A DNA stretch of 58,512 nt, counting the filler, from Sphacelaria rigidula (lineage: Eukaryota): NCBI GenBank assembly GCA_964200075.2. It is 3 parts of 3 records of this genome, joined end to end, with 100 filler letters (N's around TTAATTAATTAA, not from the genome) between each part and the next. Parts side by side here need not be neighbours in the genome. Positions count along the whole stretch, not along the records: positions 19,543 to 38,978 come from CAXNAA020000671.1; 2 more parts are not named here. One strand, given 5' to 3'. The translations under genes and the position numbers were made by a program. Shown here piece after piece: positions 19,543 through 51,600 of this stretch. The notes under the pieces were generated by a model. The model ran no database searches. It was given only the letters and a program-made list of their open reading frames with translations, and had not been told where the DNA came from. Every line of letters starts with the position of its first letter. The first letter of the stretch is position 1.

Positions 19543-19586
19543 CTGCAAAGTTCTGTTCCGTATCTCTTCTGACCCTGTCACTAAAC

Positions 19587-19864
19587 GGCCGATTATACGG
19601 CCAATACTTGGAGTTGGACCCTGAAATTTGGTATGGACAATGAGTAGGGCACAATGAAAATTATTACTGGCGTACACGAGGGAAGTTTTTGTTTTTTTCA
19701 TGAGTTAGGGGCAATATTCAGTTTTCAGATATCGGTAAAATGCCCCAAACTCATGAAAAAAACAAACAAACTTGTGTACACCAGTAAATTGTTTTATTAT
19801 GCGCTACTCATTGTCCATACTTCATTTCAGGGTCCAGCTCCAAGTATTGGCCGTATAATGGGCC
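19587..19864. repeat. ~280-bp hairpin (foldback/MITE-like)
   Basis: attatacggccaatacttggagttggaccctgaaat...gtatggacaatgagtag pairs with ctactcattgtccatac...atttcagggtccagctccaagtattggccgtataat. Confidence 0.9.
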
Positions 19865-22800: not shown

Positions 22801-25800
22801 GCAGCAGCCCTTCAATTTCTCGCACATGCTTTGCAGGCAGATAACCCAAGCTACTCTTGTGTGTGCAGATTGATTGCTTATGGTGAATGCATAGTCCGGA
22901 GACATCGTAGTACCGCAAGCATTGTTCGCAATACAGATTGGATAACATGTTGTAATATTTGCAGTACTATCAACGTGCAGTACCTACTCATGTACGTTGT
23001 AGTAAGGGCCATTATTATCGACAAATTCTCTTGTAGAGAAGTTCTGAAATTTCAGAGAGCTCCAAGCGGCTCATTATGAGAAGGTTTCGGACATTTTTTT
23101 TCGCATCTCAGGATCAAAACGAAAGCGGGAAAAGGCGGTAGCGGTATAAATTTCACGCTGAAAGAAACTCCAGCATCACCTTGTCAGCGTCAGAGCCCTG
23201 TTTGGAGCACTCTACACTGAAATCCGATGTACCTCTTGAGCCTCCAGTACGGAACGACAGGGAGGCACGACCACCCACCCACCCCCCACCACGTTCACAG
23301 CCAGTGCACACTCAATGTACACTGATATTCAAAGCGGGACATGCATCACAACCGTCAACCTCGCCACTATGGACCAGTCACGAAGTAGGAACGCTTGGCA
23401 TTGCAAACAGAGGGCTTTTCCTGTCGCCGCCATGGTGTCAGCATTCGATCGGTTGTGTTGCGTGAAATGCAAATGCTCGGCGTGTACGAGACGTTGCCTT
23501 GTGTACAGCTCCTCACTCTTGCCGACCTAAGATGGAAGAAGACGGTGTGAACGATTCGTAGTCTACAGTGCGCGAACAGAGCTACACCTGGCTGCACTGC
23601 CAATCCGATAGAGGTCATGACGTCTTACACGGCCGTTGTGGGTGGCATCTTGCGAATCGTTGCATTGCGGCTTTTTCTATTCTGTGGAAATGCTGCTGTG
23701 CTGTCTTTATGGCATCGCTGTACTCAACCGTGCTGCAATGTACCGTAGGGTTCTACATGGCTGCACTGCACTGTCTGCACTGTATACTGCACGGCACTCG
23801 AGTGCCCTGTAGTGCAGTGAAGTAGTGCAAATGCAGTGAAGCGTACAGTAGTGGGCGGTGTAACTGTTTGAGGGTGTTCAGGGGTTGTCCTCGCGTGCTA
23901 CTCTTTGATAGAACTCGAAATTGCTAGCGTCGGTAGATTTTGATACGGCAAATCAGATCATCTTCGAAACACAGCGCCCAAGTCAGTGTTAGTTGGTGCT
24001 ATCAGGCGAAACGAGTGAATACCCCGTTTACCAGGAGGGTCTCACTGACCGTGAAACACAGTCTTTCGGCTCTAGTGCAATGAGTAGGCAGAATTTCAGA
24101 AACATGAAACTGTACGTATCTTTGCAAGTATGATCGGGACGGGCTCGATCGACCGAAAATAAAGAAGAGTAAGAATCTGGGCTAAAACGTGGCAGGACCC
24201 CTGATGACCGGTCAGCCCGTATGTGACTCGAAATTGAGTACAGATGATTTTTTCGTCTTGGAATGTGGGGCGGATACAAATATGTCCAGATCCTCGATGT
24301 GATGAGAGGTGGCGAGCGAAGAAAGCCCAAGCAAATCGCCACTCACGAAGAAATCACAAAATGCCACAAAATGATTAGTTAGACCGCCCGCTACTGTAGT
24401 GTAGGGTACGTGTCGCAGGGTAAGGTACAGCACAGGCTTGTTAATGCTGTACAGTGCTGTGTGGGCCTAGGCATTTTCGTACCGGATGCTGGTCCATCGC
24501 ACATCTGGCGGGGCAACCTGTGGTCAATCACTGCGACCCAAAACATCAACGCCAATCCATGTTACATCAGCTTCCGTTCTGAACCTTTTAGCGTCCACAT
24601 TGAAGTTTCACGAGCGTCCACTTTGAAGTTGTTCCAGTCTGATTCCTCAATGAGCTTTGATTATCTAGTTCTGCCGTTGCTATTGGATATCTCATCACAG
24701 ACACAAGGCTGTTCTCGCCGCTGGCTTGCCTTCGTCGGCCAAACGAATGACAGGATGGTGCTGCCTGCTTGTGTATGACGTTCAAGGAATATGGCAAATA
24801 TCTTTCTCGCAACCTGTGTGTGAAACGGGTGGGGTAGTCGGAAAGGCAAGGAAGGGTGTGATCAATCGGTCCTGCCGGAACACAGCAGCAGCAGACACAA
24901 GTAAAACTTTCGGCTGTAGAAAGCTCAGGGCAGAACTTGCAGCATGCTTCCTGTCAGTTGTGGCGCAGATGTACTCACCACACCACTAGCTCTAGACTTC
25001 ACAGACGGTGCGGTCGTGTACACTTCTAGCAGCACAGCAGGCAAATTGGTCGCTACGGGATTATCCCTGCTCTTCACTTCGAAAGTGTGTATATCCGCAA
25101 ACGGCAACCACCGTACTTGACCGCAACAGCTCAACCACCGCAACCGACGCACACACCGTCTGCGAAGATGGACACCGCGAACCCACGGCGCTCCTTACTC
25201 TGCAACATGTCCTAGGGTGCCATTGCCAAGATTCCTCACAGCTCTCGCACCCTTGCGAGCGCCACGGCGTGCTCACAGGGCGGCTCTGCGAAGTGTTGCG
25301 CTGCAGTCCGAAGTGTTCAGACGTCTCCTAACGTGAAGCTTCGGAGAAAATCTCAAGCCTCTTCATTTTCGGAGAACGCCGAACGCCGCGTCTGAAAACG
25401 CCAAGTATTCAAAGGAAGGGCAATGTACGAAATAGGGTACGCCCTGGTGCTTTTCGAACAATAGAGGGGAACTTGTTGTTTTGTTTTCGGACGCGGTGCC
25501 GCACGCGGTCTCAACACCTCGACAACTTGTTGCAGCTCCTCAGCCCCACGCACAACGTGTCTGGGTAGCATGCCGAACCTTTTGTTTAGTTTTCACCCGT
25601 GGTGCTGGGGTTAACCACGGCATGAATATAAACAGTCTGTGAGAGTACAGTCTTTCGTTAGCAGACCAGGAGGGTACACCCTGTTTTCTGCTGAAAAACT
25701 ATCTTTCATTTTGTTTGTTCACGTGTGGACCCCTTCATGCTCGAGGGCATACTCTTTTAAAGTATGTCTCGTGCGGGGTCATTTCGTTCTCTGAAGCTCT

Positions 25801-26144
25801 GAGAAGCAAGGAGTCGTCTCTACTTATGGAATACATGTTTACCGCTGATACCTCTACGCTTGCAATTCTCTAGACATCAGGGTTCGTTCTGTTTCTGCTT
25901 GCAGTTGGAGTATATCCGTTTCCCGCGCTGTGTTCTGTAAGTAAGGCGATATGGGGTTGCGACGCGTTCCGTTGAATTCCCCGTATCCACGTGTCAGCAG
26001 ACCCTTCGACCGTCAGGGGTACCGTCATTCATTTCGACCACTCTTCATTTGTGGAATCGGCATCGGTTTTATATGAAAATTGAGTCGTGATCACGCTCAT
26101 TCGACGATCAGAAGACATGGCCTCAAATCATGCCACCGCTCTAC

Positions 26145-27070
26145 ACTGAACAGCATCTTATTTCTCTCGGGGCAGGGCTTGCACACCTCGGACGTGTTTC
26201 GATATTGCACGCGTGTCCCAACTGTACGTTGTTTTTCCCTGTCTCTGCATTGCTGCAGCTGGTGGTACTGCGTTTACGGATCATTCGAGTTTCGTTCATC
26301 ATGGCCGACCGGCTGCAGCGCTGTCCCCTTCTTTTCCGAATTTGAATGGGCGCCATCTCAGCTAGTGCTGATCCTGCTGTGTGCGTGTCTTGTGCGCGCG
26401 TCTCACTCGAACCATCTTTCTTCATTGAATTCTGAGCAGATAAGTGCAAGGTCACGCACCCCGGGCCCAGCTGATGAGCAGCTACGGCTTCAGCTGTGTT
26501 TTTTAGTACATGGGAGCAGTCAATTCTTCAGGCTCACCTCTGATTGTGTTCGTTTGTATCAATCCTCTGCGTGTGCCCCTGTCAACGGGACATCCATGTT
26601 TCTCTTCGGGCTGAAAAGCGAGGCAAACGAAAGTCGTTCGTGAAACGAACCGGCATACGTTTCACTTGAAATTGATTCGGCGTCATCTCCATTTTTCAAG
26701 CAAAGGATGCGATATAGTATCGTGCAATCGCTCTCAATTGAACACAGTCTTCCACTCGGGGCAAGGCTTTCACACCTGGCGCGTGTTTTGATCTTGCACA
26801 CATGTCTCAATTGTATTTTTGTTTATTTCTCTGTCTCTGCCCTGCTGCGGCTGGTGCTATTACCTCTACGGCACGCGCAGGTCCTGCTCATCATAAGTAG
26901 CCGGATGCAACGTTCGCTTCATTTCGAATGTGAAGCAGCATCATCTGAACGGGTGCTGATCCTCTGTGTGCGTGTGTTCTGCGCGCGCGTCTCACACAAA
27001 CCGTCGTTTCTCCTTCATTATGAGCCGAGTTGTGTCGTGTCGAGTACCACGTGCTGAGCTGATAAGCAGG
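26145..27070. repeat. Two diverged direct copies of a ~320-bp unit (~26145-26450, ~26735-27070)
   Basis: Shared ctcggggca.ggctt.cacacct, gtgctgatcct..tgtgtgcgtgt, gcgcgcgtctcac, ctgagc.gataag. Confidence 0.75.
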
Positions 27071-27934
27071 TGCGGCCTTCTCTTCAAATAGACTTGCTTT
27101 GCTTTGCATCGCGCCTCCAGTTTTATTTTCCTTCGTTATGATATAAAAGGAGCATAACCGGAATACAAGTAGACGCACGGAGAAAACCCAGTAAAAGTGA
27201 CAAAGTATGAGTCCACTGAAGCTCTCGTGTCTCGCACGCGGGAATAACATACAGTCCAAATGCATCACATGAGCTCGGGCACTCACACAGCCCGTAGCCA
27301 TCGTTCAAGCCATCGCACGGTGCAAACTTCCTCGTAACGGTCGAAAAACGCGCTGCGGCACAGTACCAAAAAATACCGCCAACCGACTGGAGGTGGACAT
27401 AAGCTATGTCTAAGTCGCGAGTTGGACATACGTTATGTCCACCACCAGCGGTTGGAATACCTGTCCGCGCTCGTCTCCTGTGCCTTGCATCGACACAACA
27501 GCAGCTGCAATACACTCACACATTCCGTAGCTACCGTTGAAGCTATCGTGGGGTGCAAACGGCCTGGTAGCGCAGAAGAGTCGCGCCTGCTACACACAGG
27601 GCCAAATAGTACCTCTATCTGCACCGGACTGGACTTGGGTAGAGCTTTTATCAGAAACGCGACGTAGGCAACTTGGACATAAGCTATGTTGACGGCAGGC
27701 GTGAGAGCACATAATCATGTGCTTGTGATTGATAGCGGTCGCGTTTCAGACAAGAACGCCAACAGGCGATTGCCGCTAGTACGTTTTCCCCGCAATGTCC
27801 CGCGATGCACTGAGGGTGTGGCCAGCGTGATCAGCGTGTATCCATTGTACAGACAGTGTTCAATAAACTAGAAATGTGCTGCGATTAGCACGTCTCATGT
27901 GCCTTGCATCGACACCCCAAAAGGAGAATAATTA

Positions 27935-28383
27935 AGAGCAGCAGTATCGGCAGCATCTTTCCTGCCAGTAGATGTACGCGGCTGGGGGTGGGTTTGAATC
28001 AGCCGGTGCCGTTAACGCTGCTGCTGCTGCTGCTGTTGCTGCCGTTTTTCCTCACGGGAGAGACGGTCCACGTTTCGATCGTGCTACAAAGCTTTCGCAC
28101 CTTGCGTGTGATAGCCACCGTCCTGGAAGGCGCTAGTCCGCACTACCTGCTGATCAGTCTATGCTTCCCCACTAGGCTAAGTGCTGGGAGATATAGCTAT
28201 GGGCATCTATCTAGTACAGTACGGGAGAAAAAAGTTGACACGTGCTGTACTCGTACTGAACATGCTATGTGGGTAACAACATGCAAACAGGTCACAGTTG
28301 ATTTCAAGTAGGGAGGAGGCAATAACGTGCCAGGTGCATGGGTATTGTCGCAAGTCGAAACGCGGACCGCCTCCCGCACGAGA

Positions 28384-28415
<32 letters not shown>

Positions 28416-28700
28416 CATATTTATTGCCAGTACATATACGCCGCTGGGGGTGGGTCGGAATTAGCCGGTGCCGTTGGTGCTGATGCTGATACTGCTGCTG
28501 CTTTTCATCGTAGACGGTCCGCGTTTCGACCGTGCGACAGCACCCACGCACCTTGCAAGTGATGGCCACCGTGCCGGACAGTGCTGGTACGTACTACCCG
28601 CCGATGGGTCCATGCTTGCCTACTCGTCGAAGTTCTGGGAGATATAGCTGTGCACATCTCCCCGTGGGAGCTGTGCACGTGGAGTGTGTCTCCCACGCGT
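27935..28700. repeat. Two diverged direct copies of a ~300-bp unit containing CAG/CTG microsatellites
   Basis: Shared gctgggggtgggt, agccggtgccgtt, agacggtcc.cgtttcga, cgcaccttgc..gtgat.gccaccgt, ctgggagatatagct. Confidence 0.8.
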
Positions 28701-30129
28701 GGCTACTGCTGGTGATGACATTTTTTTATTTCTGTTTGACAAAGATGAAAAAAAACAAAAGGGATTCAAGTATGTAGGACAGGGGTTACATTTTGTATGT
28801 ACAGTAGAATCTGAAAACTTTTAATAATGCTGTTGAACTTCTGTCTTTTGTTCAGTGTAATACTCTGTACTACTTTATATATTGTAGGACTTCTGTATTA
28901 ACAAGAGGGATTGAAGTATGTGGGGGGAGGGTCTCGTTCGGGGCAGGTTCTTTACAAGTTCTGATTGGTTCTGGCAATATAATGTGAAAAAACGAAACAC
29001 TTTTCCGTCAAAGAAATCCAATGCCGATCTGAAATGGCCTGGGACAACAATCAATTTGAAAACTGGAACTATGCCATGGGTCATGACGCATCACCGGTCC
29101 CCATGTATCTTGGCTGTTGGTCTATTGAGCGTGGCGGCGAAAGCCGCCGAAACCCTTGGTGTATAATTTGTTCACACAGTATGTCGACAACCTGCGTTAT
29201 ACAACATATACTGACTGAACACTATCCTGGCGGAAAAAGCGAGTCGGGATGTATGAAGCGAACAACATGTGGGCCGATTTAGGAATGTAATATATACATG
29301 GGCCGTACATAAAGCTTGCCACGAATAACATCAAGGTATGTTATTCGCACAGCATATGCCTTCAGGAGATGCGCCAAAACATTTTGTCTGTGTAAACATC
29401 ACATGCCGGACAAGCGCAGTATGGATTGACGGCACAAAACATTTCATGTCCGAAAGCGGCAATCTGATGCCGGCGCAGTACGTTGTGCGTAAGTTAGTGC
29501 CATGGAAGTTGGACGTGAGTGAGTGCAGTGTATTGGGCGCGTGTTGTACGGGTGGGCCGATAGATGCAACACATGCCGACACGATATTATGATCGTGTGG
29601 TATGTGGAACCTCTCGAAACACCTCCAAGTATATTCCCGATACATCCCCCGTATGTACTCTTCCTACACTCTACTACATCAACGGCCTGTGTTATACACT
29701 ATATAGACCTTTATATAAGATTAGGACGGCTCACGCTTCCGGGGGGGGGGGGTGTTGGCTCGCGGTTGGGCCGCTCGATGACCCAACCATTATGTACAAA
29801 TTACCTGGCTATGGTTAGACACTCCATTCCCGAGCTCTAAGAAAGGTGCTCTTCTTCGCTTCCGAATAAAAGCAAGAAAATGTTATCGAATGAAATCAAT
29901 AAGAGATATATCAAGAGAAAAGAACGGAAACATCTGTCCCCCGAGTTGATCGGGGTTGAGGTAAAAACACACCCATCAGGTCTGCTACTGTATAGTAGTA
30001 GACAGAAGAAGAAGGGATAGGAATGAGCGATTTGAATAACTACCAAGCGAGCGTCGGATCAACAACCTCAGGCATCCTCGCCATTTTTCTACAAGGGCGT
30101 CATTGTTCTTTTTCTCTATGCGTCAACAA

Positions 30130-32200
30130 AAAAAATGTATATTGGGCGATCAATATGATGGCACGAGAGAGGGGCAGTATATATTGTGATATCAATATGT
30201 CAAGTCTCGCGACATGTGATATACATATATATATCTATCGACCGAACAATATATCACGACACGCGCCTGGTCAAAATATATTGGCCTAGTACCACATTGG
30301 TGCGGTAAGGCACTAATATATATATATATATTATATTATTACATACATATCGAGTAGTATACTGGCTGCCACACGAGGTCAATATAGATTGATTGATCGA
30401 TTGATTGATTGGTTATCTCACATTAGCTGATTTCAACAATCCAGCCCGTGGTCAGGAGCAGCAAGGATAGAAAAATAAATATTAAAATAAATATTAAAAA
30501 AGAACAGAAAAACGACAGAAGCAATGGCCTCTGGAAGGAAAGAAAGGGTGCAGCGATAACAACAAAAACCACCACCACCACCACCAACAGGAACAACAAC
30601 AAAAAAATAACGACAAACACGAACACAAACACAAGCATGAACAAAGACAAAAAAGATGATGATCGCGCATTACGTAGCTGATTGCAACACTCCAGCTCGT
30701 AGTCAGAAACAAAAAGGAGTAATATGAAAAAAATGAAGACAGAGCCAGGCTCGTTCCGGCGGCGGGGGGGGGGGTGGCGGGGTGAAAGCACAGACGGAAC
30801 AAAAAGCAAAAAATAAAGAAGAAGAAACCATATTGATTATTCAATCTACTCGACACCCGGAGCGCCAATATATATTGCCCCCCCGATATGTCGTGCGTCA
30901 ATTCATCCAATATATATTGGGCGGACAAAACACGAGGTGAGGGACGGTCACAATACATATTGGTGAAGCAGTACGTTTTATGAATTTTCGATGTGTAGAT
31001 TGGAAAGTGTATTGCAAATAGTATAGTGGGCAGTTCTATGTTCGCGGGCGCCGTCGAAAGATGTATCACTACGTGCCGAAAACGCTCATGTTATTCCTCC
31101 GCGAGCGTGTTCAATATATATTGGCTGCACAAAAGCTATGCGATGAGCGTGCGCGATAAATACTGGAAAAAAATTATTTTTGCATGGTTTGCGTTCAATA
31201 TTTATCATGGTGACAGCATGTTACGCATCGCTTCGACTCAACATATATTGACACTTCAATACATACACGGCCGGCATGCATAACATATATTGCATGTCTT
31301 GTTCCGGAGCAAATGCACATCCAATATATATATATATAATATAATATGTATATTGTCATGCATTACTTCACTGTCATGACAGGAGAAATATATGTTGTTG
31401 CTTCAATGTCTCCGAGGACATCTTGACACGAAATATATTGAAAGGACAATAATTGTGCTGTCTCCAATACAAAGTATTGATATCATGTTGGAACATATTG
31501 TACCGTCCAGGGTATAAACAACACAGCACCGGTGACCAGGGGAGTACCAAAAGACGCATACCGACAGGCGTTTTCTGTCGTCGTGATGTTTACCGAAGAT
31601 ATATTAACTGCTGTGAGGGGAATGGGCGGCCCCGTACCGGTGGATAAATAGGTATCAGAAGGCATATATACCGGGTCGCCTCGCAGCAATGCACGCGAAC
31701 TTCTGCGACTCCCTTCGGAGCTTTTCCCAATCTGCACGGGCTCCCACATCCACCGCGTCTGGATTTTCCTCAAATGTACACCATACTTACAATAATATGA
31801 GATGTGTATTGACTGGCAAATACATTGGCACCCAAGCAAACCCAATATATATTGACCGGTCAATATTTTCTCACCATTGCGACCCTGATGTATATGGGTT
31901 GGGCAATATGCCGTCGTCCACACTGCCGCTATATATTTACATATATATGTTGGTTGGACAATATGTGTTTAACCCCACGGTACCCATATATATATATATA
32001 TATATTGGGCGGGCAATTTGAATGCAGTCCCACGACATCAATTGGCGCACAATACGTGTGCAGCCCAAGGGCACCAATATATATATATATATATTGGGCT
32101 GGCAATATATCACAAAATTCCAATATGGTCGACCAATATATATTGAAAACATATTGTATCGTCCAGGGTGTGAAGCAATCACACAGTAGCGGCCGATTAT
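30130..32200. repeat. Dispersed array of the palindromic motif CAAT(AT)nATTG
   Basis: Many copies of caatatatattg, caacatatattg, aatatattg and (TA)n-expanded variants separated by non-repeating sequence. Confidence 0.75.
30387..30830 (-). mobile_element. Probable LINE family B-type 3' UTR relic with (ATTG)n tail
   Basis: attgattgat... run followed on + by a long A-rich tract, i.e. the mirror image of the 51900-52195 UTR and tail organisation. Confidence 0.5.
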
Positions 32201-35200
32201 CCTCACGTATTCTCCACCGTCTACCCGCCAACCCTCCCGCCGGAAACGGCCTCCAAAACGTCTGCTTTATGCTTCCCGTGCGGTTGTTTTTACTACACCG
32301 GCAACTGCACCGCTGCCGGTACACATTACGAACAATGCTCTTCTCAGCCTTCGTATGAACTCAAAAACACGAACCACAACACAAAAGGAGAGCTTGGCTG
32401 TCGATAGCGCTGCACCTCGAACTGTGTTCACCTCAACTCCGTGACCCGCGGAAAAAAGCACCGCAGCCGGCCGAAGGGCGGCAAGGGCTTCTATAGGATG
32501 ATATAGCAATACTCTTGGTATGGTTAGTGCCCGACGTGTATTTTCTCATCACTATGTTCTCATATATTCTCTTGACTCGATATACCGATTCGTCGATATA
32601 TCTACAGCCGTCGGGGGGTGTACATGTTGAAACATGTTGCTCGGGAGGCAACCTCGTGTCCAGCACATGCCGACACGAATCCAACGTGGGCTACGGCATC
32701 TTTACTGCCAATTACAGCACACGTCAAGACCCGGATGGATGCTGTCTACGATGCAAAGTATTGACATGCATCGAAAACCGCATCGACCCGTCTAGGGTGT
32801 GGCTCCTACCCATCATGTTGTTCCTTCCGAGGGCAAGTAGGCAGGGCATGACATGATGAGGGTAGGTTACATGGTTGTTGTTTGCGGAGAAGCGTTTTTG
32901 CAGGATAGTATCAGAGGAAGTGATTGCACGACAGCGGTGATATCATAATTGGCAACCGGAGACGTGCAACACCGTGCCGTCGGCATGGGAAGAATTGATC
33001 AGACACGATTGCAGTCAGCCTCAGTCACGTCGAACAAGAGCGAGAGCAAGAGTGGTTCATGTGATGGTAGGCTTGTAGCACTTGTGTCTTCAACCGATTG
33101 TGTGTGCCCTATTTCAATAAACCTTATATTAATCATTCCCGTCGCTCGAGTTCCCATAATTAATAGGGAGTGGTTGCGTTATGCTTACCTTGGGTGCATC
33201 TATGTTGTGACCACGCCTCGATTTCTCGGGAATCACTGAGTGTGCGACAATCGAACACAGAGAGCCCATATGCGGGCTTGGGTAGAAATGAACAAATGCC
33301 ACCACATGTTCAAAGTAACCACGAACAAAACGCTGAGGTCACAATAACTTGCGTCTGTCGATCTGCCGATGTAACTTCCTCCCAACCGTTATTTCCGGTC
33401 TCGAGTTGGGGGCTGGATGCGATTTGATCCTAGAGTGATGTTTACACGTCCTGTGCACTCAGATGGTATGATGTGAAGGTACTATCCTGTTTTGATCTTC
33501 TTGTTTGACGAGAGCGCCATTTTTTCGGGGACTCATGTGTCCAATGTGTTGATGCAAAACTTACTTCTTTTGAAGTGCTCCAGACTTGTGCTTTTTCCTC
33601 CAAAACCTCGGTTCCAGTCCACACCAAACAATCCAACTTCATCACGACCATATACAGGGGGGTGTCCCGATCGCATTGTTGTGATTTATCGTGACACACA
33701 CGGGGGGCAGGGTATATGGTATATCTCCCTGCACATGTGAAGCCATATTCATTCGCAAACTCGGCATCAACTCCCGAGGCATACTATGGAGGAACGTAAA
33801 GTAAATAGGGTGGTCCATCATGCCTTCTGGGAAGATAGTCCATGTGTTGAGGACAGATGATGTGGCCACGCATTCGTTACGAGCTGTCTACCAGAATTCA
33901 TTGGGTCATGTACTGGTGTCGATGCGGGAGTTGAGCTCCTTACAAACGCTTACCAACGCGAAATTAATGTATTCAAGCATAGGCTTTACGCCTCAAGCGA
34001 TACCGTGACTTTACTAGTTTCCCAGGGAATGGACAGTCCGTAGTCAGTAGACACTGGTACGTCCTACTCTTTCAACAAGCTAACTTGAGTGATTTTATTA
34101 GCCTAAATTTTGAAGTGTATAGTCTAGCCATTCATGTTGTGTCTCCTAGTTGAGTTGGGTTCATGTGTGTTGAGTAGATCCAGCATTCAGCAAGGCACCG
34201 ACTTAAGCTTCTCGCATGAAGAGGTAAAAATGCCGGTGTGTGTTACTCTAGTCCTCACAACCGGTCTTTCCCAGGTGCCTTTTTCTAAGGATGTTGTCTT
34301 TCTGAGCTATCGCTGGGTGATCGGTGGATAGGTTGAGCATGACCGAGAATAAAGTAGGATTCCGTACATTTTGGGTAGGGTTGCCAACTCATTCGTGGGG
34401 AGATCATCTTCGGTTGTTTACTACGTTTTCAGTAGTGTCGTTTCACGTGCTTGGTCGATGAGCTTCCGTGCCCGTGTGCTGCGTGCATGTCAACTGGTTG
34501 TGCGGACTATGACGGTTTGTAGCCACCCGTCGCCGAGGATTCTACCTGCTTTTTGAGGCCTGGAGCCGCCGGCCGCTTGTGTCAATACGCACCACTACAT
34601 CGGCAGCACGTACTAGTGCAGAAATGTGCAGTATGGCACTTGTTATGACCTTGAAATCCTCCTTACCATACAACTTCGCACGATCAAATGGCGGGAGTTA
34701 CGTGAAGGTAGTTCGAGAGACACTTGTGACATACATACATCTGAATTTCATGAGCTGCCCGCATGACGCATCTGACAGCACGAAGGGGTGGGCTATAAAT
34801 TCCTTGTATAGGCTCGAGATCTTACTTTCAATAATAATAAAAAATACATCCCATTGTGTGTGTTTTTTCATCAATACCATAGACTCGGACTACTCTTTTG
34901 GACCGAGGTGTATGGCATGTGTGTGTGTGTGTTGCTTTTTACATGAGCTGCACCATCAAGTGGAGAATCCAGTGGAGAAAATATGCAGAGTTTTGCAAAG
35001 TTCTCGACCAAAGAAGTCGGCGGCACTACGTTAGAACGTTCGACGGAGCAATTGCGTACCTGATCTTATTACTGAGTTTAGGCACATGCGAGATATGAAC
35101 AGCCTGTGTTTACCATTTTCCCTCGAAGTACTGTATATCGCGGTTGACCAACACTGTTCACTCTTGACGGCTTTTGATACGTTTCATATTCTCAGATAGC

Positions 35201-35520
35201 ATCAGGAGGAACTGCCTTCCCCTCTTGTTCGGCCATGGGAAAGTGGAACTGCTAGAAGCAGCCGAAAGTGTTGCGCTAGAGCCTCTCGCTTCACCTGCGT
35301 AGAGGTAGTACAATCTCGGCAGTGCCCCCAGAAGGGCTGCTTGAAATGACCATCAGATAGAGTGACGGGTGTCAGCGTCGTAGAGGTGTTTGCGAAAAGG
35401 GTTGGGGTGGACGATGAAGTAAACAAGGAGTGAGGCACCAAGGGCTTCTCCAAGAAGCCATCATACTGTGTAGCGGGAAGCCCGAAGGCGGAGTTCTGTG
35501 CCGCCCACGCCAGGTCCGGG

Positions 35521-37725
35521 ATGATGGGTGTGGGGAGCAAGAAATGTGGCCACAAGGATTGCTCCAAACGACCATCTTTCGGTGTAGCGGGAAGCCGGAA
35601 AGGGGAGTTCTGTGCCGAGCACGCCAGGCTGGGAATGGTGAACGTAAAGAACAAAAAGTGCGGCAACGAGGGCTGCTCCAAGCATCCATCGTTCGGTGTA
35701 GTGGGAAGCCGGAAAGGGGAGTTCTGTGCCAATCACGCCAGGCTGGGAATGGTGAACGTAAAGAACAAGAAGTGCGGCAACGAGGGCTGCTTCAAACAAC
35801 CATCTTACGGTGTAGTGGGAACTCGGAAGGCGGAGTTTTGTGCCGATCACGCGAGGCTGGGGATGGTGGATGTAAAGAGCAAGAAGTGCGGCCACAAGGA
35901 CTGCTTGAAACAACCATTTTACGGTGCAGCGGAAAGCCGGAAAAGGGAGTTCTGTGCCCAGCACGCCAGGCTGGGTATGGTGGATGCAAGGAACAAGAAG
36001 TGCGGCAACGAGGGCTGCTCCAAACGACCATCGTTCGGTGTAGCGGGAAGTCGGAAGGCAGAGTTCTGTGCCGACCACGCGAGCGTGGGGATGATCAATG
36101 TAGTGGAAACAAAGTGCGGTAACGAGAGCTGCTCCAAACTCCCGTCGTACGGTGTAGCGGGAAGTAGGAAAAGGGAGTTTTGTGCCGAGCACGCCAGGCT
36201 GGGAATGGTAAATGTAAAGAACAAGAAGTGCGGCAACGAGGGCTGCTCCAAACTCCCGTCGTACGGTGTAGCCGGAAGTCGGAAGAGGGAGCTCTGTGCC
36301 GATCACGCGAGGCTGGGGATGGTGGATGTAAGGAGCAAGAAGTGCGGCCACAAGGACTGCTTGAAACGACCATTTTACGGTGCAGCGGAAAGCCGGAAAA
36401 GGGAGTTCTGTGCCCAGCACGCCAGGCTGGGTATGGTGGATGTAAGGAACAAGAAGTGCGGCAACGAGGGCTGCTCCAAGCATCCATCGCATGGTGTAGC
36501 GGGAAGTCGGAAGGCAGAGTTCTGTGCCGACCATGCCAGGGCAGGGATGGTCAATGTCGTGATTAAGAAGTGCGGCAACAAGGGCTGCTCCAAACACCCC
36601 TCTTACGGTGTAGCAAGAAGTTGGAAGGCAGAGTTCTGTGCCGACCATGCCAGGGCGGGGATGGTCAGTGTCGTGAACAAGGAGTACGGCGATGAGGGCT
36701 GCTCCACACTTCCGTCGTACAGTGTAGAGGGAACTCGGAAGACGGAGTTCTGTGCCGATCACGCCAGGCCGGGGACGGCCATTGTCGTGGGCAATAAGCG
36801 TGTCAACGAGGGCTGCTCCAAGAGCCCATCGTACGGTGTAGCGGGGAACCGGATGGCGCAAATCTCTGCTGATCGCGCCACAGGAGAAATGATCAATGTG
36901 GTGAGCGAGAAGCCCGGCAACGAGGGCTGCTCAAAAATTCCATCATGCGATGCAGCGGAAACCCGGTCGGCGAAGTTCTGCTCGGACCACGCGAGGGTGC
37001 GTATGGTGAATGTAGCGAATGAGAAATGCAGCAACGAGTGCTGCCCTGAACAACCATCGCACGGTGTAGCGGGAAGTCGGGAGGTGGATTTCTGTGCTGA
37101 TTCCGCGACGGCGGCGATGGTTAATGCGGACAGCAAGAAAATTGGCAACGAGGGCTGCTCGAATCGGCGTGTGCACCACGTTGATGTCTTTGAACAGGGT
37201 AACCTATGCCAGCAGTCCGTATCTCGAGCAAGCAGTAGAGGGCAGCATGGAGACATGTTCGATGAGAATTTCACCCAGGACGGACAATCCAACCTTTCCA
37301 CCAGTCACAAGGGTGGTGCGGGTGATGACGGGTTCGGCTCTGCTTTGCTTGTAAGTTTAGATTTTGTTGGTACCGCGCAGTCGCAGCCTGCCGAGGGCCC
37401 TAAAGGAGGACTTCTGGGGATAAGGCCGCACGCGAGGGTGAAATCGGAAGAGTCTACTCCCCTTCAGCGTTTCAAGCAGGGCTTGCGTGAGAGGGTTGGC
37501 GTGGCCATCTACTCCGATGAAGGTGGTACCAACAGGATTGGCAGTAACTCCAGCGATAGTTGGGATGAAAGAATGAAGAAGCGGATTTGCAGGACGCCGT
37601 CGATGATTCATGAGCACCTTCGGCCGGACGATGTTTCTGTGGGTGCTTCTTCAGTGGTGTCCGAAGGGAAAGAAGGCTTGAAGATGGAGCTGGCAGTTTC
37701 GGCTCCGTTTACCCGCCTTGCGTAA
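35521..37725 (+). CDS. EsV-1-7 cysteine-rich repeat protein (734 aa; 10 intact plus ~5 degenerate 38-aa repeats and a low-complexity C-terminal tail)
   Basis: Longest ORF in the window. 114-bp tandem repeat encoding KKCGNEGCSKxPSxGVAGSRKxEFCAxHARLGMVNVxN (C-x4-C-x16-C-x2-H), the EsV-1-7 motif known to be expanded in brown algae and present in the phaeovirus EsV-1. Confidence 0.92.
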   Translation: MMGVGSKKCGHKDCSKRPSFGVAGSRKGEFCAEHARLGMVNVKNKKCGNEGCSKHPSFGVVGSRKGEFCANHARLGMVNVKNKKCGNEGCFKQPSYGVVGTRKAEFCADHARLGMVDVKSKKCGHKDCLKQPFYGAAESRKREFCAQHARLGMVDARNKKCGNEGCSKRPSFGVAGSRKAEFCADHASVGMINVVETKCGNESCSKLPSYGVAGSRKREFCAEHARLGMVNVKNKKCGNEGCSKLPSYGVAGSRKRELCADHARLGMVDVRSKKCGHKDCLKRPFYGAAESRKREFCAQHARLGMVDVRNKKCGNEGCSKHPSHGVAGSRKAEFCADHARAGMVNVVIKKCGNKGCSKHPSYGVARSWKAEFCADHARAGMVSVVNKEYGDEGCSTLPSYSVEGTRKTEFCADHARPGTAIVVGNKRVNEGCSKSPSYGVAGNRMAQISADRATGEMINVVSEKPGNEGCSKIPSCDAAETRSAKFCSDHARVRMVNVANEKCSNECCPEQPSHGVAGSREVDFCADSATAAMVNADSKKIGNEGCSNRRVHHVDVFEQGNLCQQSVSRASSRGQHGDMFDENFTQDGQSNLSTSHKGGAGDDGFGSALLVSLDFVGTAQSQPAEGPKGGLLGIRPHARVKSEESTPLQRFKQGLRERVGVAIYSDEGGTNRIGSNSSDSWDERMKKRICRTPSMIHEHLRPDDVSVGASSVVSEGKEGLKMELAVSAPFTRLA

Positions 37726-38978
37726 GTGTTGTCAACACGAACGCGAGTTGGAGTAATTCTGACATGCTAGCTGCGCGCCGATTCGTAGCTCAGCGCCAGT
37801 TTTGCCGGCAGACTTTGGTGGTATATTCGCATACGCCGCCGCAGCCCCGTTTCGTGCGTGTCGTCCCGACACGGTGGAGCTGTTCTTGTGTGACCATGGT
37901 GGATGCAAATGTATTCCTTGCGGGAAAAGCAGTTCGCGCGAGTGGGTTTTTGTTGTGTTCGCGGGTATGCACGCTGGATTGCCTGTCCGGTTATCTAGCA
38001 CACGTACAGTGTACCGCAAAGCGTTTGTGCACCAGGTGCTGTTTTGCTGTGTGTACTGCACAGGCACCCTGGCCTCTATTTTTGCTGGGGACAAATCCTC
38101 TATGGCCAATGGAACAACCGGCTGGTCGAGGATGTCACATCTTCGTAAGAGAACGTATGACGTGTGCACGTGCCAGCTCCCAGACTCCACATGTGGGTCA
38201 AACGATCAGACGGCTCAGCAAAGATTGTAGTCGTGGTACCGTGGATCAGAGGAACATGCATTTACTGTAGACGTTCGGCGCGAGTGGCAAATAAAAACGG
38301 AAAGAAATGCAAAGGATTCGTCACCGAGTCGATAGCAGCTTGGACAGCACTTCCGCGGTCAGAACTGGGTACGCCATCCGTTCAATATCCCTCGTTGCTA
38401 CTACCCCGCACTCCTCTCGCTGCTGCTGGCCCTTGTTGGGGCACAACAGGAGATGGTCGATCTTCATTGATTCCAACGTTCGGCCTCTAATTGTATCGGT
38501 GCTACAGACCGTGAGGAGGGCCTGGATAGGGTTGCACCTTTTTTGCCTCTGGTGGTACCAGCCTGTAGAAGCCTGCACCAGTGCGGAGAAAAATCGAGTT
38601 AGGCCTGCAAACCCCTGAATCGAGAAGCAAAATTGCAGCTTCATGCTGTGGATCTGAGAACTGGATGAGTAACTGCAACACCCTCGAGCCGCAGGACAGA
38701 TATTCTACGCGTTCATCAGTTTGATCATGAAGGCATGGATTGAATCCGTTTTAATGAGGTGACAAGGCACGTTACTGGCGTCCTGTTCTCTGGTATTTTG
38801 CTTTCACGTTGCCATGATTGAGCATGTCCAAGGCGTTCGCAGTGGTGATATCGGGTGGCCGATGTAAAGATTCAGACCTGTGAAATAGTTCGGTACACGT
38901 GAGATCATTTTTTGCATGAAATAGTGTTTTCGTGAGATTGAGAGTAGATGATACGATTGAGAGTGAAAAGCGGTCAAT

Positions 38979-48600: not shown

Positions 48601-51600
48601 GCGACCAACAACAACGACGCGCGCTTTCATATTAATAGTAGACATTTGAGATATCTCTGCGGTTGCGAATATCCGTAGGTTTGAGCAGGATTGTGAAAAA
48701 AAGAGCAACACCTGCAGTCGTAGTCGGGTGTGTCCGGAATAAACACAGATATCTTTTGGTGTGCCCTTTGATCGCCGGTACTGTCGCCGGCGAGGTGGCG
48801 ATGCTGTATTAACGTGTCTGAATTGAGTACAGTTTTCAACCCCAACCGTATCATACTCGAGCGCTTACTGAAGGGCATGGCGCTACTGCCCAAAACATTG
48901 TTTGTAAGACATAACCTGAGCCCTAACATCAGGGCTCCTTCTTTTCTTGTCACGGGGTCGGCCAACGTTCACAGAACAGTGCTTTTCACCTGCAGTGAAT
49001 CTGATTCTTGGGGCACGCTCTTGCGACCCATCGCCTGCAAAGAGGAGGAACTCCGTGCTCGTCGCACAGTATGATCCTATCTCCGTCAGGTGACTGTTCC
49101 TGGAACGTCAACTGGTCGGCAAGGGACGAGTGGGGCGGGGAGAGCATCAGCGTGAAGTTCGGCGAGAAGCTGAGGTATAGCTGGACAAAAACTGAGTCGA
49201 TGCACAACCTGATGGCGGCAACAGTGAGATATTATAGCCTAGATCTTCAGCCTAGGTGCAACTGTGTGGGATCCAGCGGATGATGGTTCAATCTGGCAAA
49301 GCTGGCAACTCGTGTCCGTCTCTTCATACAAATCTTCCGCATCAGCGGTGTGCCAATACAAGCTGTGGTTCTTCCTCGAAAGCGACAAAAAAGCCGTTGC
49401 CAAGAAAGCGCGCCGGGTTAGCGTCCGAGATCTGACTCGAAAAAATTGCACACGTGTCCGGACTAGTAAGAAAAAACCGTGAAAAAATGGTGGTGCTTGA
49501 AGATCCTGACTTCTTCAATTTCTTTGAAACCTCAATCTTCTGGCATTGTTAATCTGGATAGTGTGTATAATTTCGAGTACAAAGAGTCTATTTTAGGGGA
49601 AAATACAAGGGAGTGAAGTGCTTCGCTCTGGGACAAATAGACATCTGAATGGATGATATCGAACTGCTGTTGAAAGATCGAGATCGGAGACGAATGAGAT
49701 GTTGTAAGCGATTCACCAGTCCTCACGACTTCGGGAGTCCATTCGGAGAAATACATCAATATCGCAACCTTCCATGTGACAAGGTTCACCCCCTTATTTG
49801 ACGGTCTCCTGTCCTGGCGGATGTAGGTAAAATCTGGGAAATAAGCAAGGACAGGTCGGGTAGGGTATGACCAATAATACTCGGTATTTTTTAAAAGTCA
49901 CACTGTCTGGACAACCAACCGAGAGTGAGCAGTACATTCAAGATGACGATGGCCATATACTGCGGGACGAAGGTTTGATCAGTGGGAGATGGGAACAGTA
50001 CTTCTCTACATTGCTGAACGCCATGTCGGCAACTATCGACCGAACCGTCATCGAGAAGATTGCTCAACGACCAATAGCGTTGTCACGAGGAGACCCGCGA
50101 AGCCCAAGTGAAACTGAGGAGGCTCTGAGAGCTATGCCGAACGGCACAGCAACCGGTCCGGATGGTATTCCTGCTGGAATCCTGAGCCTTGGACAGAGCG
50201 GGGAGGCGTTAGAGATTCTGTACCACTTCCACAGCATCGTCTCTGCGGTTTGGACATCTGGCGAGGTGCCGCAAGAATGGAAATATGTCATCATCACAGT
50301 TGTGCACAAAAACAAGATAGGACCCAGTGTTATAGCTACAGAGGCATTTCATTTGTGGAACATGCTGCGAACGTTTTCCTCAAAATCGTAGCCAACAGAC
50401 TCGGTAATTTCTGTGAGGAAACAGATGTCTTCCCGGAAGAGCAGTGTGGATTTAGGCGCCAAAGATCCACCATAGACATGATGTTCGTAGTACGCCGACT
50501 CGAGGAGTTGGGACGGGCGAGCAACGTCCCAATAAACATGTGCTTTATTGATCTGCAGAAAGCCTACGATTTCGTAGCCCGCACGCTCCTGTGGGAAGTG
50601 CTTGCTCGGTTCGGAGCCCCGTCGCGAATGATAGCGATCATCCGTATGTTCCACGATGGCATGCGAGCTCGGGCACATCTAGATAGTGGCGAACTACCAG
50701 CGTGGTTCCACGTCTGCTAGGGACTCAGACAAGGGTACGTTTCGTCCCCGCTGTTGTTCAGCATCTTGGGAGTAGGCTTGGTGGACGTGATCGTTCAGCG
50801 GTTTGCGGCGGACCCAGTTATCATCTCAGACTTGGTCTTTCTAGATGATGCGCCAAAAGGTGGCGGTGGTGAACCCGTGGAAGAGCTACCGCTGGAGAAG
50901 GTGTGACGCGCGATGTGGGCAATGCTTCATGCGAACGACGTCGGCATAGTCTCGAGGACCTCAAAAAGCCTTGCTCAAATGATGGTCGGATGGTCTCCGA
51001 GAGAAAGACAGGGTCCATGCGCCTTTGGTCAGTACCCAATCCCACGGAGACCGCCCTGGATATCAAAGCTGCCGGTCAACGGTATATGCAGACGGGGAAA
51101 TTCATCTACCTTGGTGGAGCTATCAGCGCTGATGCAAAACTGTTCATCGAAACCAACCGCCATATCAGCGCGGCGTGGGCGCGTATCCGAAAGTGTAGCT
51201 CCCATTTCTACGACCGACCCAACGCCGAGCTATTCTTAAAACTTCGACGGCTTAAAGCGGAGGTGGTAGAAGCTCTTTTGTATGGATGTGCCACATGGAC
51301 GCTACGTTCTGAGGACTTCGACAGTCTGCGGACTGCCCATCACAAGCTCTTGCTGCGAGTCGTTGAATTCCGCAGGAAATATCGAAATGACTACAAGACG
51401 CTTCGTACAGGGCGGTGCTCGAGATGACCAACTCTGCTTCGCGGGAGCCCTTGCCCGGCAGAAGGAAATACGCCTGCCTAAACATGTCATGAACGGTCCC
51501 TCAGCCACACGAGGGCCCAAGGAGGTCGGCCGCCCCCCCCATGCAATGGGAGGATAACCTCAAGGAGAACCTACGTGCACTAGGGGCTGTCCCGCACAAA

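Follow-up and report, generated by a model that had tools for sequence, protein, structure and literature searches.

The longest open reading frame (ORF) in the 58.5-kb window, by which we mean the whole stretch of Sphacelaria rigidula DNA analyzed here (assembly GCA_964200075.2; positions 19,543 to 38,978 come from record CAXNAA020000671.1), runs on the plus strand from 35521 to 37725, stop codon included. It codes for a 734-aa protein composed of a 6-aa leader, an array of EsV-1-7 repeats, and a C-terminal tail. The protein matches Pfam PF19114 in 14 stretches with an E value of 2.1e-183 (594.2 bits, against a cut-off of 25), and its architecture is consistent with the EsV-1-7 family medians of 12 aa ahead of the first repeat and 194 aa past the last. 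As judged from the sequence, this is apparently an intact, intron-free brown algal gene for an EsV-1-7 repeat protein, and the gene is an ordinary member of the large brown algal EsV-1-7 zinc-repeat family. The DNA around the array contains few ORFs and a single reverse-transcriptase fragment, which lies ~12 kb downstream of the ORF, and a six-frame HMM search of the 58.5-kb window turns up no other EsV-1-7 gene. A provirus context for the gene was considered and rejected, as the window has few long ORFs and zero viral Pfam matches, and a survey of ORFs and Pfam matches in the flanks gives no pointer within the window to virus or transposon surveillance, the role floated in the first-pass annotation. 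Short contigs from four sequencing runs (none recorded as RNA) are mostly 95 to 99% alike, and 476 to 588 of the 770 to 937 contigs per run can be placed at two sites, which shows that there are many similar repeats in Sphacelaria rigidula.

The core of the array is a set of ten intact 38-aa (114-nt) repeats at positions 35539 to 36678 on the plus strand, each with the four ligands C3, C8, C25, and H28 and each scoring 85 to 88.5 bits against the repeat HMM. All ten have the ligand pattern C-x4-C-x16-C-x2-H at a spacing of exactly 38 aa, and a single repeat on its own scores 66.3 bits against PF19114. TRF reports 15.3 copies of a 114-nt period together with a higher-order period of 456 nt, and the repeat array is far beyond chance. 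Translation in 114-nt steps from 35539 matches exactly the columns that had been read by eye, with R,H,Q,Q,R,L,L,R,H,H at position 11 (codons CGA CAT CAA CAA CGA CTC CTC CGA CAT CAC, starting at 35569-35571 and then every 114 nt), SF,SF,SY,FY,SF,SY,SY,FY,SH,SY at positions 13 and 14, G,G,A,R,A,R,R,R,A,A at position 22, and E,N,D,Q,D,E,D,Q,D,D at position 27. Columns K2, C3, G4, C8, K10, P12, G15, K21, E23, C25, A26, H28, A29, G32, and M33 are invariant across the ten repeats, and their description as strongly basic is borne out by net charges of +3 to +6 each. It is not the case, as had been claimed, that only a few positions vary; 23 of the 38 do so among the ten repeats, and the five named positions (11, 13, 14, 22, and 27) hold 31.9% of the pairwise amino acid differences, with 68% lying elsewhere and position 11 alone contributing about 8 to 9%.

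The sequence indicates that the array grew by tandem duplication, with a four-repeat block as the latest addition, and that it is now eroding at both ends. The 456-nt (four-repeat) period extends from 35464 to 36775 on the plus strand (2.9 copies and 84% matches by TRF), and in the nucleotide identity matrix the repeat pairs 4/8, 3/7, 2/6, and 5/9 are 98, 89, 85, and 86% identical, respectively. Columns 5, 6, 7, 9, 13, 16, and 18 follow one common pattern (repeats 4 and 8, partly 1), that of a single repeat subtype copied by block duplication, and the changes in these columns are not independent. At the upstream end, a decayed repeat 0 (35425 to 35538, plus strand) is in frame with the array but has a TGA at its C3 codon (35431-35433) and a C8-to-F change, and the first ATG of the ORF (35521) lies inside its G-M motif; in the six-frame HMM search it matches model positions 4 to 36 with a score of 44.8, the match opening the stop-to-stop frame 35434-37722. 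At the other end, the array runs past 36678 into repeats 11 to 15 (36679 to 37248, plus strand), which are in frame and decayed, with C3 changed to Y, R, P, or I, C25 to S, and H28 to R or S. Repeats 11 to 14 are 60 to 80% identical in DNA to the intact repeats and to one another and score 34 to 46 bits, and repeat 15 has a DNA identity of about 40 to 46% and an HMM score of 5.3 bits (E 1.5). The intact repeats are under purifying selection, with a dN/dS of 0.31 overall and 0.69 at position 11, and site-wise dN/dS shows no site of clear positive selection among the ten window repeats.

EsV-1-7 genes are named after gene 7 of EsV-1, an Ectocarpus virus, are among the largest gene family expansions of the brown algae, and count the developmental regulator IMMEDIATE UPRIGHT (IMM) among their number, according to published accounts. 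A 2026 preprint reports that the EsV-1-7 proteins of Ectocarpus carry no further Pfam domain and describes their function as unknown. The family (Pfam PF19114; IPR043822) and the window protein are alike in the C-x4-C-x16-C-x2-H pattern, the 38-aa period, the N-terminal array, and a long, domain-free tail with no other Pfam domain. In the preprint description, IMM is characterized by an N-terminal domain of its own followed by five repeats, whereas the window protein has 6 aa before its repeats and ten intact repeats; by that description the two are set apart, and assignment of the window protein as an IMM orthologue was rejected.

For comparison across the family we used 233 database relatives, with family statistics drawn from 1,098 intact repeats in 232 other proteins and the window protein left out. 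The closest named relatives are Sphacelaria rigidula proteins with up to 63% identity, the best relatives have 52 to 63% identity over part of their length only, and no orthologue of the window gene was found among the relatives collected. The 38-aa spacing is the family mode (827 of 1,264 successive-repeat spacings), but the scaffold is not the rigid one that had been proposed from the ten window repeats. Family-wide, G4 is conserved in only 19%, A26 in 32%, E23 in 42%, and K21 in 51% of the 1,098 repeats, and the median within-array identity is 0.57. Position 14, put forward as a swappable residue, is a conserved aromatic (F or Y in 93% of family repeats). Entropy exceeds 3 bits at 11 positions, and differences are spread over most noncore positions. 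R, Q, H, I, and K predominate at position 11 (R 25%, Q 24%, H 8%), and acids are excluded there.

Position 11 is the one site for which the position-specific signal extends well beyond the window, and it is the top within-array discriminator family-wide. Among repeats of the same array that are at least 85% identical, the position-11 mismatch is 0.46 versus a mean of 0.11, and at 75 to 85% identity it is 0.70 versus 0.21 (1,098 repeats from other proteins in both cases); in within-array variability it takes first place in 46 of the 129 arrays and third place or better in 80. The picture changes for repeats that correspond to each other in related proteins. At 85% identity or more, mismatches at position 11 number 60 among 131 repeat pairs of the same array but 0 among 30 corresponding repeats, and at 70 to 90% identity 461 among 669 versus 11 among 43. 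Other sites show the opposite order, with corresponding repeats at 85% identity or more differing at position 31 in 11 of 29 cases, at position 9 in 7 of 30, and at position 30 in 6 of 29; within arrays at this identity, position 31 differs in just 19 of 131 pairs. Seven orthologue-like protein pairs agree at position 11, where their strings have four to seven states, in 45 of 52 repeats, and it is positions 9 and 31 that drift in them.

These seven are the pairs with individually recognizable repeats, at least two of them belong to the same gene family, the sorting of pairs into seven "orthologue-like" and six "young paralogue" ones was post hoc, and the repeat pairs are nonindependent, such that p-values are nominal. 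When all 80 corresponding-repeat pairs are pooled, the within-array-to-orthologue ratio at position 11 is an unremarkable 2.3, against an average of 2.2. With a small sample and post hoc grouping, the pattern of differing within arrays while being conserved between orthologues is seen at position 11, more weakly at positions 13, 35, and 37, and not at position 14. Position 11 has little covariation with the scaffold (best partner MIp 0.06), and positions 11 and 13 were rejected as a coupled di-residue, the pair ranking only 53rd of 703 in covariation. Taken from these alignments, position 11 shows the pattern expected of a specificity-determining, ligand-contact site.

Substitution rates agree with this in part. 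The site-wise set was built from 26 fetched loci plus the window, which a strict four-ligand alignment filter reduced to 7 distinct arrays (64 repeats), the loci left out being duplicates or having alignments with indels. Without the window, positions 27, 11, and 13 are on top by pN/pS at ~1.2 in the six independent arrays, and positions 11, 13, 22, and 27 are all among the top seven sites, although these values of ~1.1 to 1.2 are from uncorrected distances and are also compatible with neutrality. Positions 22 and 27, also named at the outset, are supported by pN/pS but not by amino acid mismatch, which at 0.27 and 0.36 within 46 homogeneous arrays is unexceptional.

AF2 models of four repeats, built without metal, have a mean pLDDT of 85.2 and a pTM of 0.46, with the modules confident and their relative orientation not, and a single repeat is modeled with a pLDDT of 81.9. 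Strands are predicted at repeat positions 14 to 16, 22 to 24, and 33 to 35, and DSSP assigns no helix in either the four-repeat or the single-repeat model. Foldseek and VIA-wide structure searches with both models yield nothing significant; the best Foldseek E values are 4.4 and 4.6, with an ArfGAP finger first-listed for the single repeat, and RING and B-box structures top the VIA results with Z scores of 2.0 to 2.6 for 8 of 48,161 chains, the best of them (Z 2.5 and 2.6 over 38 to 49 residues) far below shared-fold level. As in small zinc modules of the RanBP2-type, ArfGAP/GATA-like, RING, and B-box kinds, two putative zinc knuckles flank a beta-hairpin in the EsV-1-7 model, and the ArfGAP finger also has a ligand spacing of ~16 residues, but with insignificant matches (Foldseek E of at least 4.4; Z of 2.6 or less) no fold membership can be claimed.

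Profile searches are similarly unproductive. The sole PDB sequence match to the repeat profile is a plastocyanin copper-loop look-alike (E 0.75), an ESM Atlas search excluding PF19114 gives no usable match, and a permissive Pfam scan with one and two repeats returns only sub-threshold DUF1490, Zf_WRKY19, CxC6, and zf-AN1, with zf-C2H2 absent even at E of ≤10. A C2H2 zinc finger fold was rejected, given ligands C, C, C, H with C-x2-H as the second pair, no helix, and no zf-C2H2 match. The basic character of the window repeats is shared by the family, with a mean net charge of +2.65 per repeat, 87% of repeats positive, and acidic residues at ≤1% at positions 1, 2, 10 to 15, 22, and 29.

The nonrepeat C-terminal tail of the window protein (37249 to 37722, plus strand) is 158 aa long, G- and S-rich, and negative in domain searches, with no Pfam domain at E of ≤0.01. 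Against 204 family tails its best BLAST E value is 0.17, and it is a singleton in clustering; one homologous group accounts for 93 of the 204, and the window tail has zero matches at E of ≤10 to the 93-tail profile and an hhalign probability of 1%. We note that viral and metagenomic relatives, found with the whole window protein as the query (the 38-aa repeat profile yields no confirmed relative in a search for viral loci), have tails of another kind. All 23 array-bearing ORFs at these loci carry a tail of 144 to 279 aa behind an N-terminal array of 4 to 15 repeats, and invariant E, D, E-x-D-E-x-x-H, and R-x-N-P residues are present in all 15 aligned tails. The order is the one seen in Vsr-like homing endonucleases, whose composite E-D-x-H-D motif is described in PMC3239194. 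Pfam matches to the 15 tails are all below curated cut-offs (MTES_1575 in three, Hjc in one), there is no PDB sequence match, and none of the 15 matches PHROGs.

From the motifs and the sub-threshold matches, we regard the viral and metagenomic tails as putatively nuclease-like. These giant-virus and metagenomic arrays (compare I-Bth0305I, PDB 3R3P; PMC3239194) are of the same repeat family as the window protein, with an N-terminal array and a similar tail length, but differ in having the putative Vsr-like "EDxHD" nuclease-type tail, which by profile search and hhalign is absent from the window protein and the sampled brown algal members. Descent of the brown algal tails from decayed nuclease domains was considered and rejected, as weak profile matches occur only at the Cys-rich start and the window tail has zero.

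We propose that the protein is a string of zinc modules in a basic array, predicted to bind nucleic acid, most likely DNA, with residue 11 as a graded specificity site, and that it acts as a regulator and not a nuclease; we see the chances of this being correct as evenly balanced. Each repeat would fold alone as a small zinc-bound module, in which C3/C8 and C25/H28 form knuckles on a short beta-hairpin and F/Y14, F24, M33, V34, and V36 the core, and the modules would be strung flexibly, with each repeat adding +3 to +6 to the basic surface that they present. Such an array could bind an extended, probably polyanionic partner, for which nucleic acid is the leading candidate and DNA the most likely form; the case for DNA is indirect and derives from the viral and metagenomic relatives that join the array to a nuclease-like tail, and the weak structural resemblance to RING and B-box would suit a protein partner just as well. 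The loop after the first knuckle (positions 9 to 13, above all residue 11) would make the repeat-specific contact, with residue 11 diversifying between young duplicated repeats and paralogues and later becoming fixed between orthologues, as a graded specificity site and not a TALE-like digital code. The protein would then work as a regulator that is specific for a sequence or a partner, in the manner of its relative IMM.

An unlikely alternative, although the one we take most seriously, is that the variation has no function, and that the array is simply a young tandem duplication whose variable columns are the least constrained surface loops plus inherited subtypes, with position 11 the freest site of all. 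Much of the variation in the window fits, including the 23 varying positions, the 68% of differences outside the five named positions, the single block-duplication pattern shared by columns 5, 6, 7, 9, 13, 16, and 18, and a dN/dS below 1 in every site class; family-wide, the entropy above 3 bits at 11 positions and pooled pN/pS of 1.1 to 1.2 at the top sites, which is the neutral expectation, fit as well. However, a site that is simply fast would be expected to vary among closely similar orthologous repeats too, and position 11 does so in 0 of 30 at 85% identity or more. It is positions 31, 9, and 30 that drift there (11 of 29, 7 of 30, and 6 of 29), with the order reversed within arrays, and the four-to-seven-state position-11 strings are retained in 45 of 52 orthologue-like repeats.

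It is rather improbable, in our estimation, that the repeats are instead RING/B-box/LIM-like protein-interaction modules, with the choice of partner adjusted through residue 11. Structural resemblance is weak and confined to RING and B-box (Z 2.0 to 2.6 for 8 of 48,161 chains), the model has no recognized DNA-reading helix, and the Ectocarpus proteins, according to the 2026 preprint, lack other Pfam domains and have a function described as unknown. The Z scores are, however, far under shared-fold level, the net charge is strongly positive with acids excluded at positions including 10 to 13 and 20 to 22, and in the viral and metagenomic proteins the array stands next to a nuclease-like domain, a setting in which one expects a module that targets DNA.

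TALE repeats and C2H2 zinc finger arrays are modular DNA readers. EsV-1-7 arrays are like them in being built of tandem small modules with a basic surface, and in having a loop position that differs between repeats and yet is kept between orthologues. They differ in that the EsV-1-7 model has no helix and neither a beta-beta-alpha nor a helical-hairpin fold, and in that the scaffold is not near-identical but has variation graded over many positions. The resemblance noted in the first-pass annotation holds for the behavior of position 11 but not for a near-identical scaffold with a few code positions. We consider it highly doubtful that each repeat reads a base or short word through positions 11, 13, 14, 22, and 27 as a reprogrammable code. 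The restriction of position 11 mainly to R, Q, H, I, and K without acids, its near independence of the scaffold, and its retention between orthologous repeats are all compatible with such a code, as are the pN/pS ranks of 11, 13, 22, and 27 in independent arrays and the nuclease-like fusions of the viral relatives. Against it are the median within-array identity of 0.57, the conserved aromatic at position 14, the unexceptional amino acid variation at 22 and 27, the 53rd rank of the 11-13 pair, and a pTM of 0.46, which gives no defined superhelix.

That this is a dying gene, with an eroding array that has no current function, is very improbable, since although repeat 0 contains a stop codon, five downstream repeats have lost zinc ligands, and the tail has no relatives, the 2.2-kb frame is still open and the longest in the window, dN/dS is 0.31 between intact repeats, all four ligands are complete in 10 of 10 of these, and the leader and tail lengths are within the family norm.

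Extending the DNA-binding proposal, one could envisage EsV-1-7 arrays joining C2H2 fingers and TALEs as a third natural kind of modular DNA-targeting array, in which position 11 would set the contact with assistance from 13 and possibly from 22 and 27. Giant viruses would use it to aim a Vsr-type homing nuclease, and brown algae would have kept the array without the nuclease and expanded it to hundreds of rapidly re-specified regulators, of which the window gene would be a young example. We offer this wider scenario as a long shot. The locus itself is ordinary, and the comparison that it prompted brings out the family-wide position-11 pattern, which makes the ligand of EsV-1-7 repeats easier to test. 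Together with the nuclease-like fusions, this pattern leads to the testable proposal that the array may be a DNA-targeting module; should that proposal fail, the EsV-1-7 family is more likely a protein-interaction scaffold. The arrays with putative nuclease fusions, together with their insertion sites, would provide a natural training set for the proposed targeting.

The longest ORF of the 58.5-kb window encodes 734 aa on the plus strand (35521-37725), and cutting its frame into 38-aa units from 35539 confirms the ten-repeat EsV-1-7 array described in the first-pass annotation, whose column strings are all reproduced exactly, letter by letter. The ten intact repeats (35539-36678, plus strand) retain all four ligands (C-x4-C-x16-C-x2-H) and share fifteen invariant columns. 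The array extends beyond these limits in both directions, with five decayed in-frame units that have lost ligands (36679-37248, plus strand) and an upstream decayed unit, repeat 0, also in frame (35425-35538, plus strand), in which the codon for the first cysteine is TGA. Repeat 0 also holds, within its G-M motif, the first ATG of the ORF (35521), so the present start may have arisen as an originally longer array eroded. A Gly/Ser-rich C-terminal tail of 158 aa follows directly after the array on the same strand. Tandem Repeats Finder detects 15.3 copies of a 114-nt period and a higher-order period of 456 nt (four repeats), and a six-frame search of the window found no further EsV-1-7 repeats outside the array. 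An antisense ORF of 466 aa covers the array (window 35461-36861, minus strand) and is most likely not a gene, being explained by a repeat unit that is stop-free in that frame.

The flanks of the array contain few long ORFs. An RVT_1 reverse-transcriptase fragment (50118-50720, plus strand; E 1.1e-9) lies in an ORF-poor region ∼12 kb downstream of the array and is a retroelement remnant. A provirus was rejected as the setting of the array, as ORF-poor flanks with one reverse-transcriptase fragment indicate host-type DNA. Short contigs from runs X1 and X6-X8 stack on 35405-37100 in their hundreds, most of them 95 to 99% identical, and over half can be placed at two positions; many near-identical EsV-1-7 repeats are evidently present elsewhere in the organism's genome. 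The DNA identities of window repeat pairs 4/8 (98%), 3/7 (89%), 2/6 (85%), and 5/9 (86%) are consistent with a block of four repeats having been duplicated recently, and with decay at both array edges. Columns 5, 6, 7, 9, 13, 16, and 18 have one common pattern (repeats 4 and 8, and partly 1), and thus reflect a single copied repeat subtype rather than independent changes. The ten intact repeats have a dN/dS of 0.31, so purifying selection has acted on the modules. The family itself is well known, and this locus adds a new and fairly young member to it.

The proposal that a rigid scaffold carries variation at only a few positions does not hold in the window or across the family. In the window, 23 of the 38 positions vary, and the five positions singled out (11, 13, 14, 22, and 27) together account for 31.9% of pairwise differences, with position 11 having the largest single share (8.1%). 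When a profile was run against 1.84 billion representatives, 3367 proteins were found at E<=0.001; the family sample comprises 233 proteins and 1497 repeats, with 1098 intact repeats from outside the window. Among these 1098, eleven positions have an entropy above 3 bits and several supposed scaffold residues are poorly conserved (G4, 19%; A26, 32%; E23, 42%; K21, 51%). The family-conserved set is instead the four ligands, K1 and M33 (93% each), G18, P12, G32, V34, V36, and the aromatics at 14 (F/Y, 93%) and 24 (F/Y, 89%). Family arrays are usually heterogeneous, with a median within-array identity of 0.57 against 0.73 in the window array (rank 32 of 167), and the scaffold of the latter thus appears rigid because the array is young.

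Position 11 is nonetheless singular within arrays. Same-protein repeat pairs that are at least 85% identical mismatch at position 11 in 46% of cases versus a mean over positions of 11% (131 pairs), and pairs 75 to 85% identical do so in 70% versus 21% (369 pairs); position 13 is second, at 29% and 52%, respectively. Among 129 arrays, each with five or more intact repeats, position 11 is the most variable site in 46 and among the top three in 80 (median rank, 2). Mismatch values over 46 other homogeneous arrays are 0.71 for position 11, 0.55 for 13, 0.26 for 14, 0.27 for 22, and 0.36 for 27. At position 11 the residues are predominantly R, Q, H, I, and K, with acidic residues nearly absent (1%), and the site covaries little with the remaining repeat (best partner MIp, 0.06); in the covariation ranking of 703 position pairs, 11-13 comes 53rd.

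Comparison with corresponding repeats of related proteins (13 collinear pairs, 60 to 86% identical, with 80 corresponding repeats) shows no special conservation of position 11 over all 80, the within-array/ortholog ratio being 2.3 versus a mean of 2.2. At 85% identity or above, however, corresponding repeats have 0 of 30 mismatches at position 11 versus 60 of 131 within arrays, with similar contrasts at positions 13 (1 of 30 versus 38 of 131) and 35 (0 of 29 versus 41 of 131), whereas positions 31 (11 of 29 versus 19 of 131) and 9 (7 of 30 versus 26 of 131) behave in the opposite manner. At 70 to 90% identity, position 11 mismatches in 11 of 43 corresponding repeats versus 461 of 669 within arrays, an odds ratio of 6.5 whose nominal p of 3e-8 is unreliable because repeat pairs are not independent. 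A post hoc split of the protein pairs gives seven in which corresponding repeats are far more alike than within-array ones and are thus individually recognizable, and here, with at least two pairs from one gene family, 45 of 52 repeats share the position-11 residue of their counterpart, even though each array uses four to seven different residues at this site. In the other six, which are homogeneous-array pairs with only positional correspondence, just 5 of 28 do so, though the repeats are 58 to 79% identical; these are mostly Sphacelaria-type paralogues resembling the window's nearest relatives. With these cautions, the alignments suggest that position 11 diversifies between young duplicates and is conserved between orthologues, as expected of a specificity-determining contact residue. 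We note that family-wide the linker positions 35 and 37 (M-V-[ND]-V-[KRV]) also vary within arrays and are conserved between corresponding repeats (position 37 at 85% identity or above, 0 of 10 versus 23 of 87 mismatches), and may set repeat-to-repeat geometry.

Codon-level evidence for position 11 is weaker than these amino acid comparisons. Window dN/dS is 0.50 for the five highlighted positions and 0.69 for position 11. DNA of seven arrays (64 repeats), the window's among them, passed a strict ligand filter; with the window left out, the top sites by pooled site-wise pN over global pS are 27 (1.24), 11 (1.20), 13 (1.20), 26, 32, 18, and 22 (1.07). The top pN/pS sites are 13, 37, 11, 27, and 22 (2.4 down to 1.3) in the other homogeneous array, from viral/metagenomic locus L012, and 37, 22, 31, 11, and 27 in the window alone. 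Positions 11, 13, 22, and 27 thus recur, but positive selection is not proven, as the values are near 1 and come from uncorrected distances.

An AlphaFold2 model of four repeats, from a 79-row in-register alignment (mean pLDDT, 85.2; pTM, 0.46), has short strands at repeat positions 14-16, 22-24, and 33-35 and lacks helix; a single repeat with flanks is modeled at pLDDT 81.9. The models suggest that the repeats are independently folded small modules along a flexible string. No significant match to solved structures was found, the best Foldseek E values being 4.4 and 4.6, with a nonsignificant ArfGAP zinc finger first in the Foldseek listing and the best VIA scores (Z 2.5 to 2.6, not significant) going to RING and B-box domains; the repeat profile likewise gave no significant sequence match among PDB entries. 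Judged from the sequence, residues 9-13 would form the loop joining the first knuckle to the first strand, and residue 27 would lie inside the second knuckle (C-A-x-H). The segment F-C-A-x-H-A-x-x-G-M-V at positions 24-34 (35608-35640 in repeat 1) resembles the type-1 copper loop of plastocyanin, C-x2-H-x4-M, without significance (E 0.75). M33, 93% conserved family-wide, is unusual in a zinc finger and may simply be a core residue.

The repeats are basic: net charge lies between +3 and +6 in each window repeat and averages +2.65 over the family (87% of repeats positive). The 26 viral/metagenomic loci yield 23 array-bearing ORFs with 4 to 15 EsV-1-7 repeats, every one with a tail of 144 to 279 aa; the conserved tail spans roughly 180 aa and is accompanied by a short Cys-rich linker. 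Of 204 family tails, 93 cluster as a single homologous group, which takes in all of these loci. Invariant in 15 aligned tails are E, R-R-P-D, E-x-D-E-x-x-H, and R-x-N-P, an order that fits the composite E-D-x-H-D motif of Vsr-like homing endonucleases, as described in PMC3239194. Pfam-type support is sub-threshold only (MTES_1575 in 3 of 15, Hjc in 1 of 15), and the tail has no match in the PDB (by sequence) or PHROG. Its motifs make the viral/metagenomic tail a probable Vsr-like or PD-(D/E)xK nuclease, and the fusion of arrays to it argues, indirectly, for targeting of DNA by the array. No nuclease-like domain was found in the window protein against the tail profile, nor in the sampled brown-algal tails. 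Beside the viral array gene of locus L008, a neighbor (1138-2937, minus strand) combines PBCV-specific basic adaptor repeats with a protein kinase domain, which points to a chlorovirus-like giant-virus context for that contig. A green-algal protein model from Elliptochloris bilobata (P0088) joins seven EsV-1-7 repeats to a complete electron-transfer-flavoprotein alpha subunit; this could be a genuine fusion or the product of two gene models merged into one.

The EsV-1-7 family is expanded (2018 proteins in 31 genomes, with 335 in Ascophyllum), and the literature passages on it cover its viral affinity, expression bias, and the developmental regulator IMM; in these passages we found no mention of a ligand or of position-specific variability. 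The stronger reading, in which the array is a reprogrammable TALE-like code or serves in surveillance, is unsupported, and it is improbable that EsV-1-7 arrays constitute a third natural modular DNA-targeting system. The narrower idea, that repeat-specific information resides in a residue immediately following the C-x4-C knuckle, gains genuine, if indirect, support at position 11. There is about an even chance that the array is a string of zinc modules with a specific ligand, probably a nucleic acid, in which residue 11 of each repeat would be the main specificity contact.
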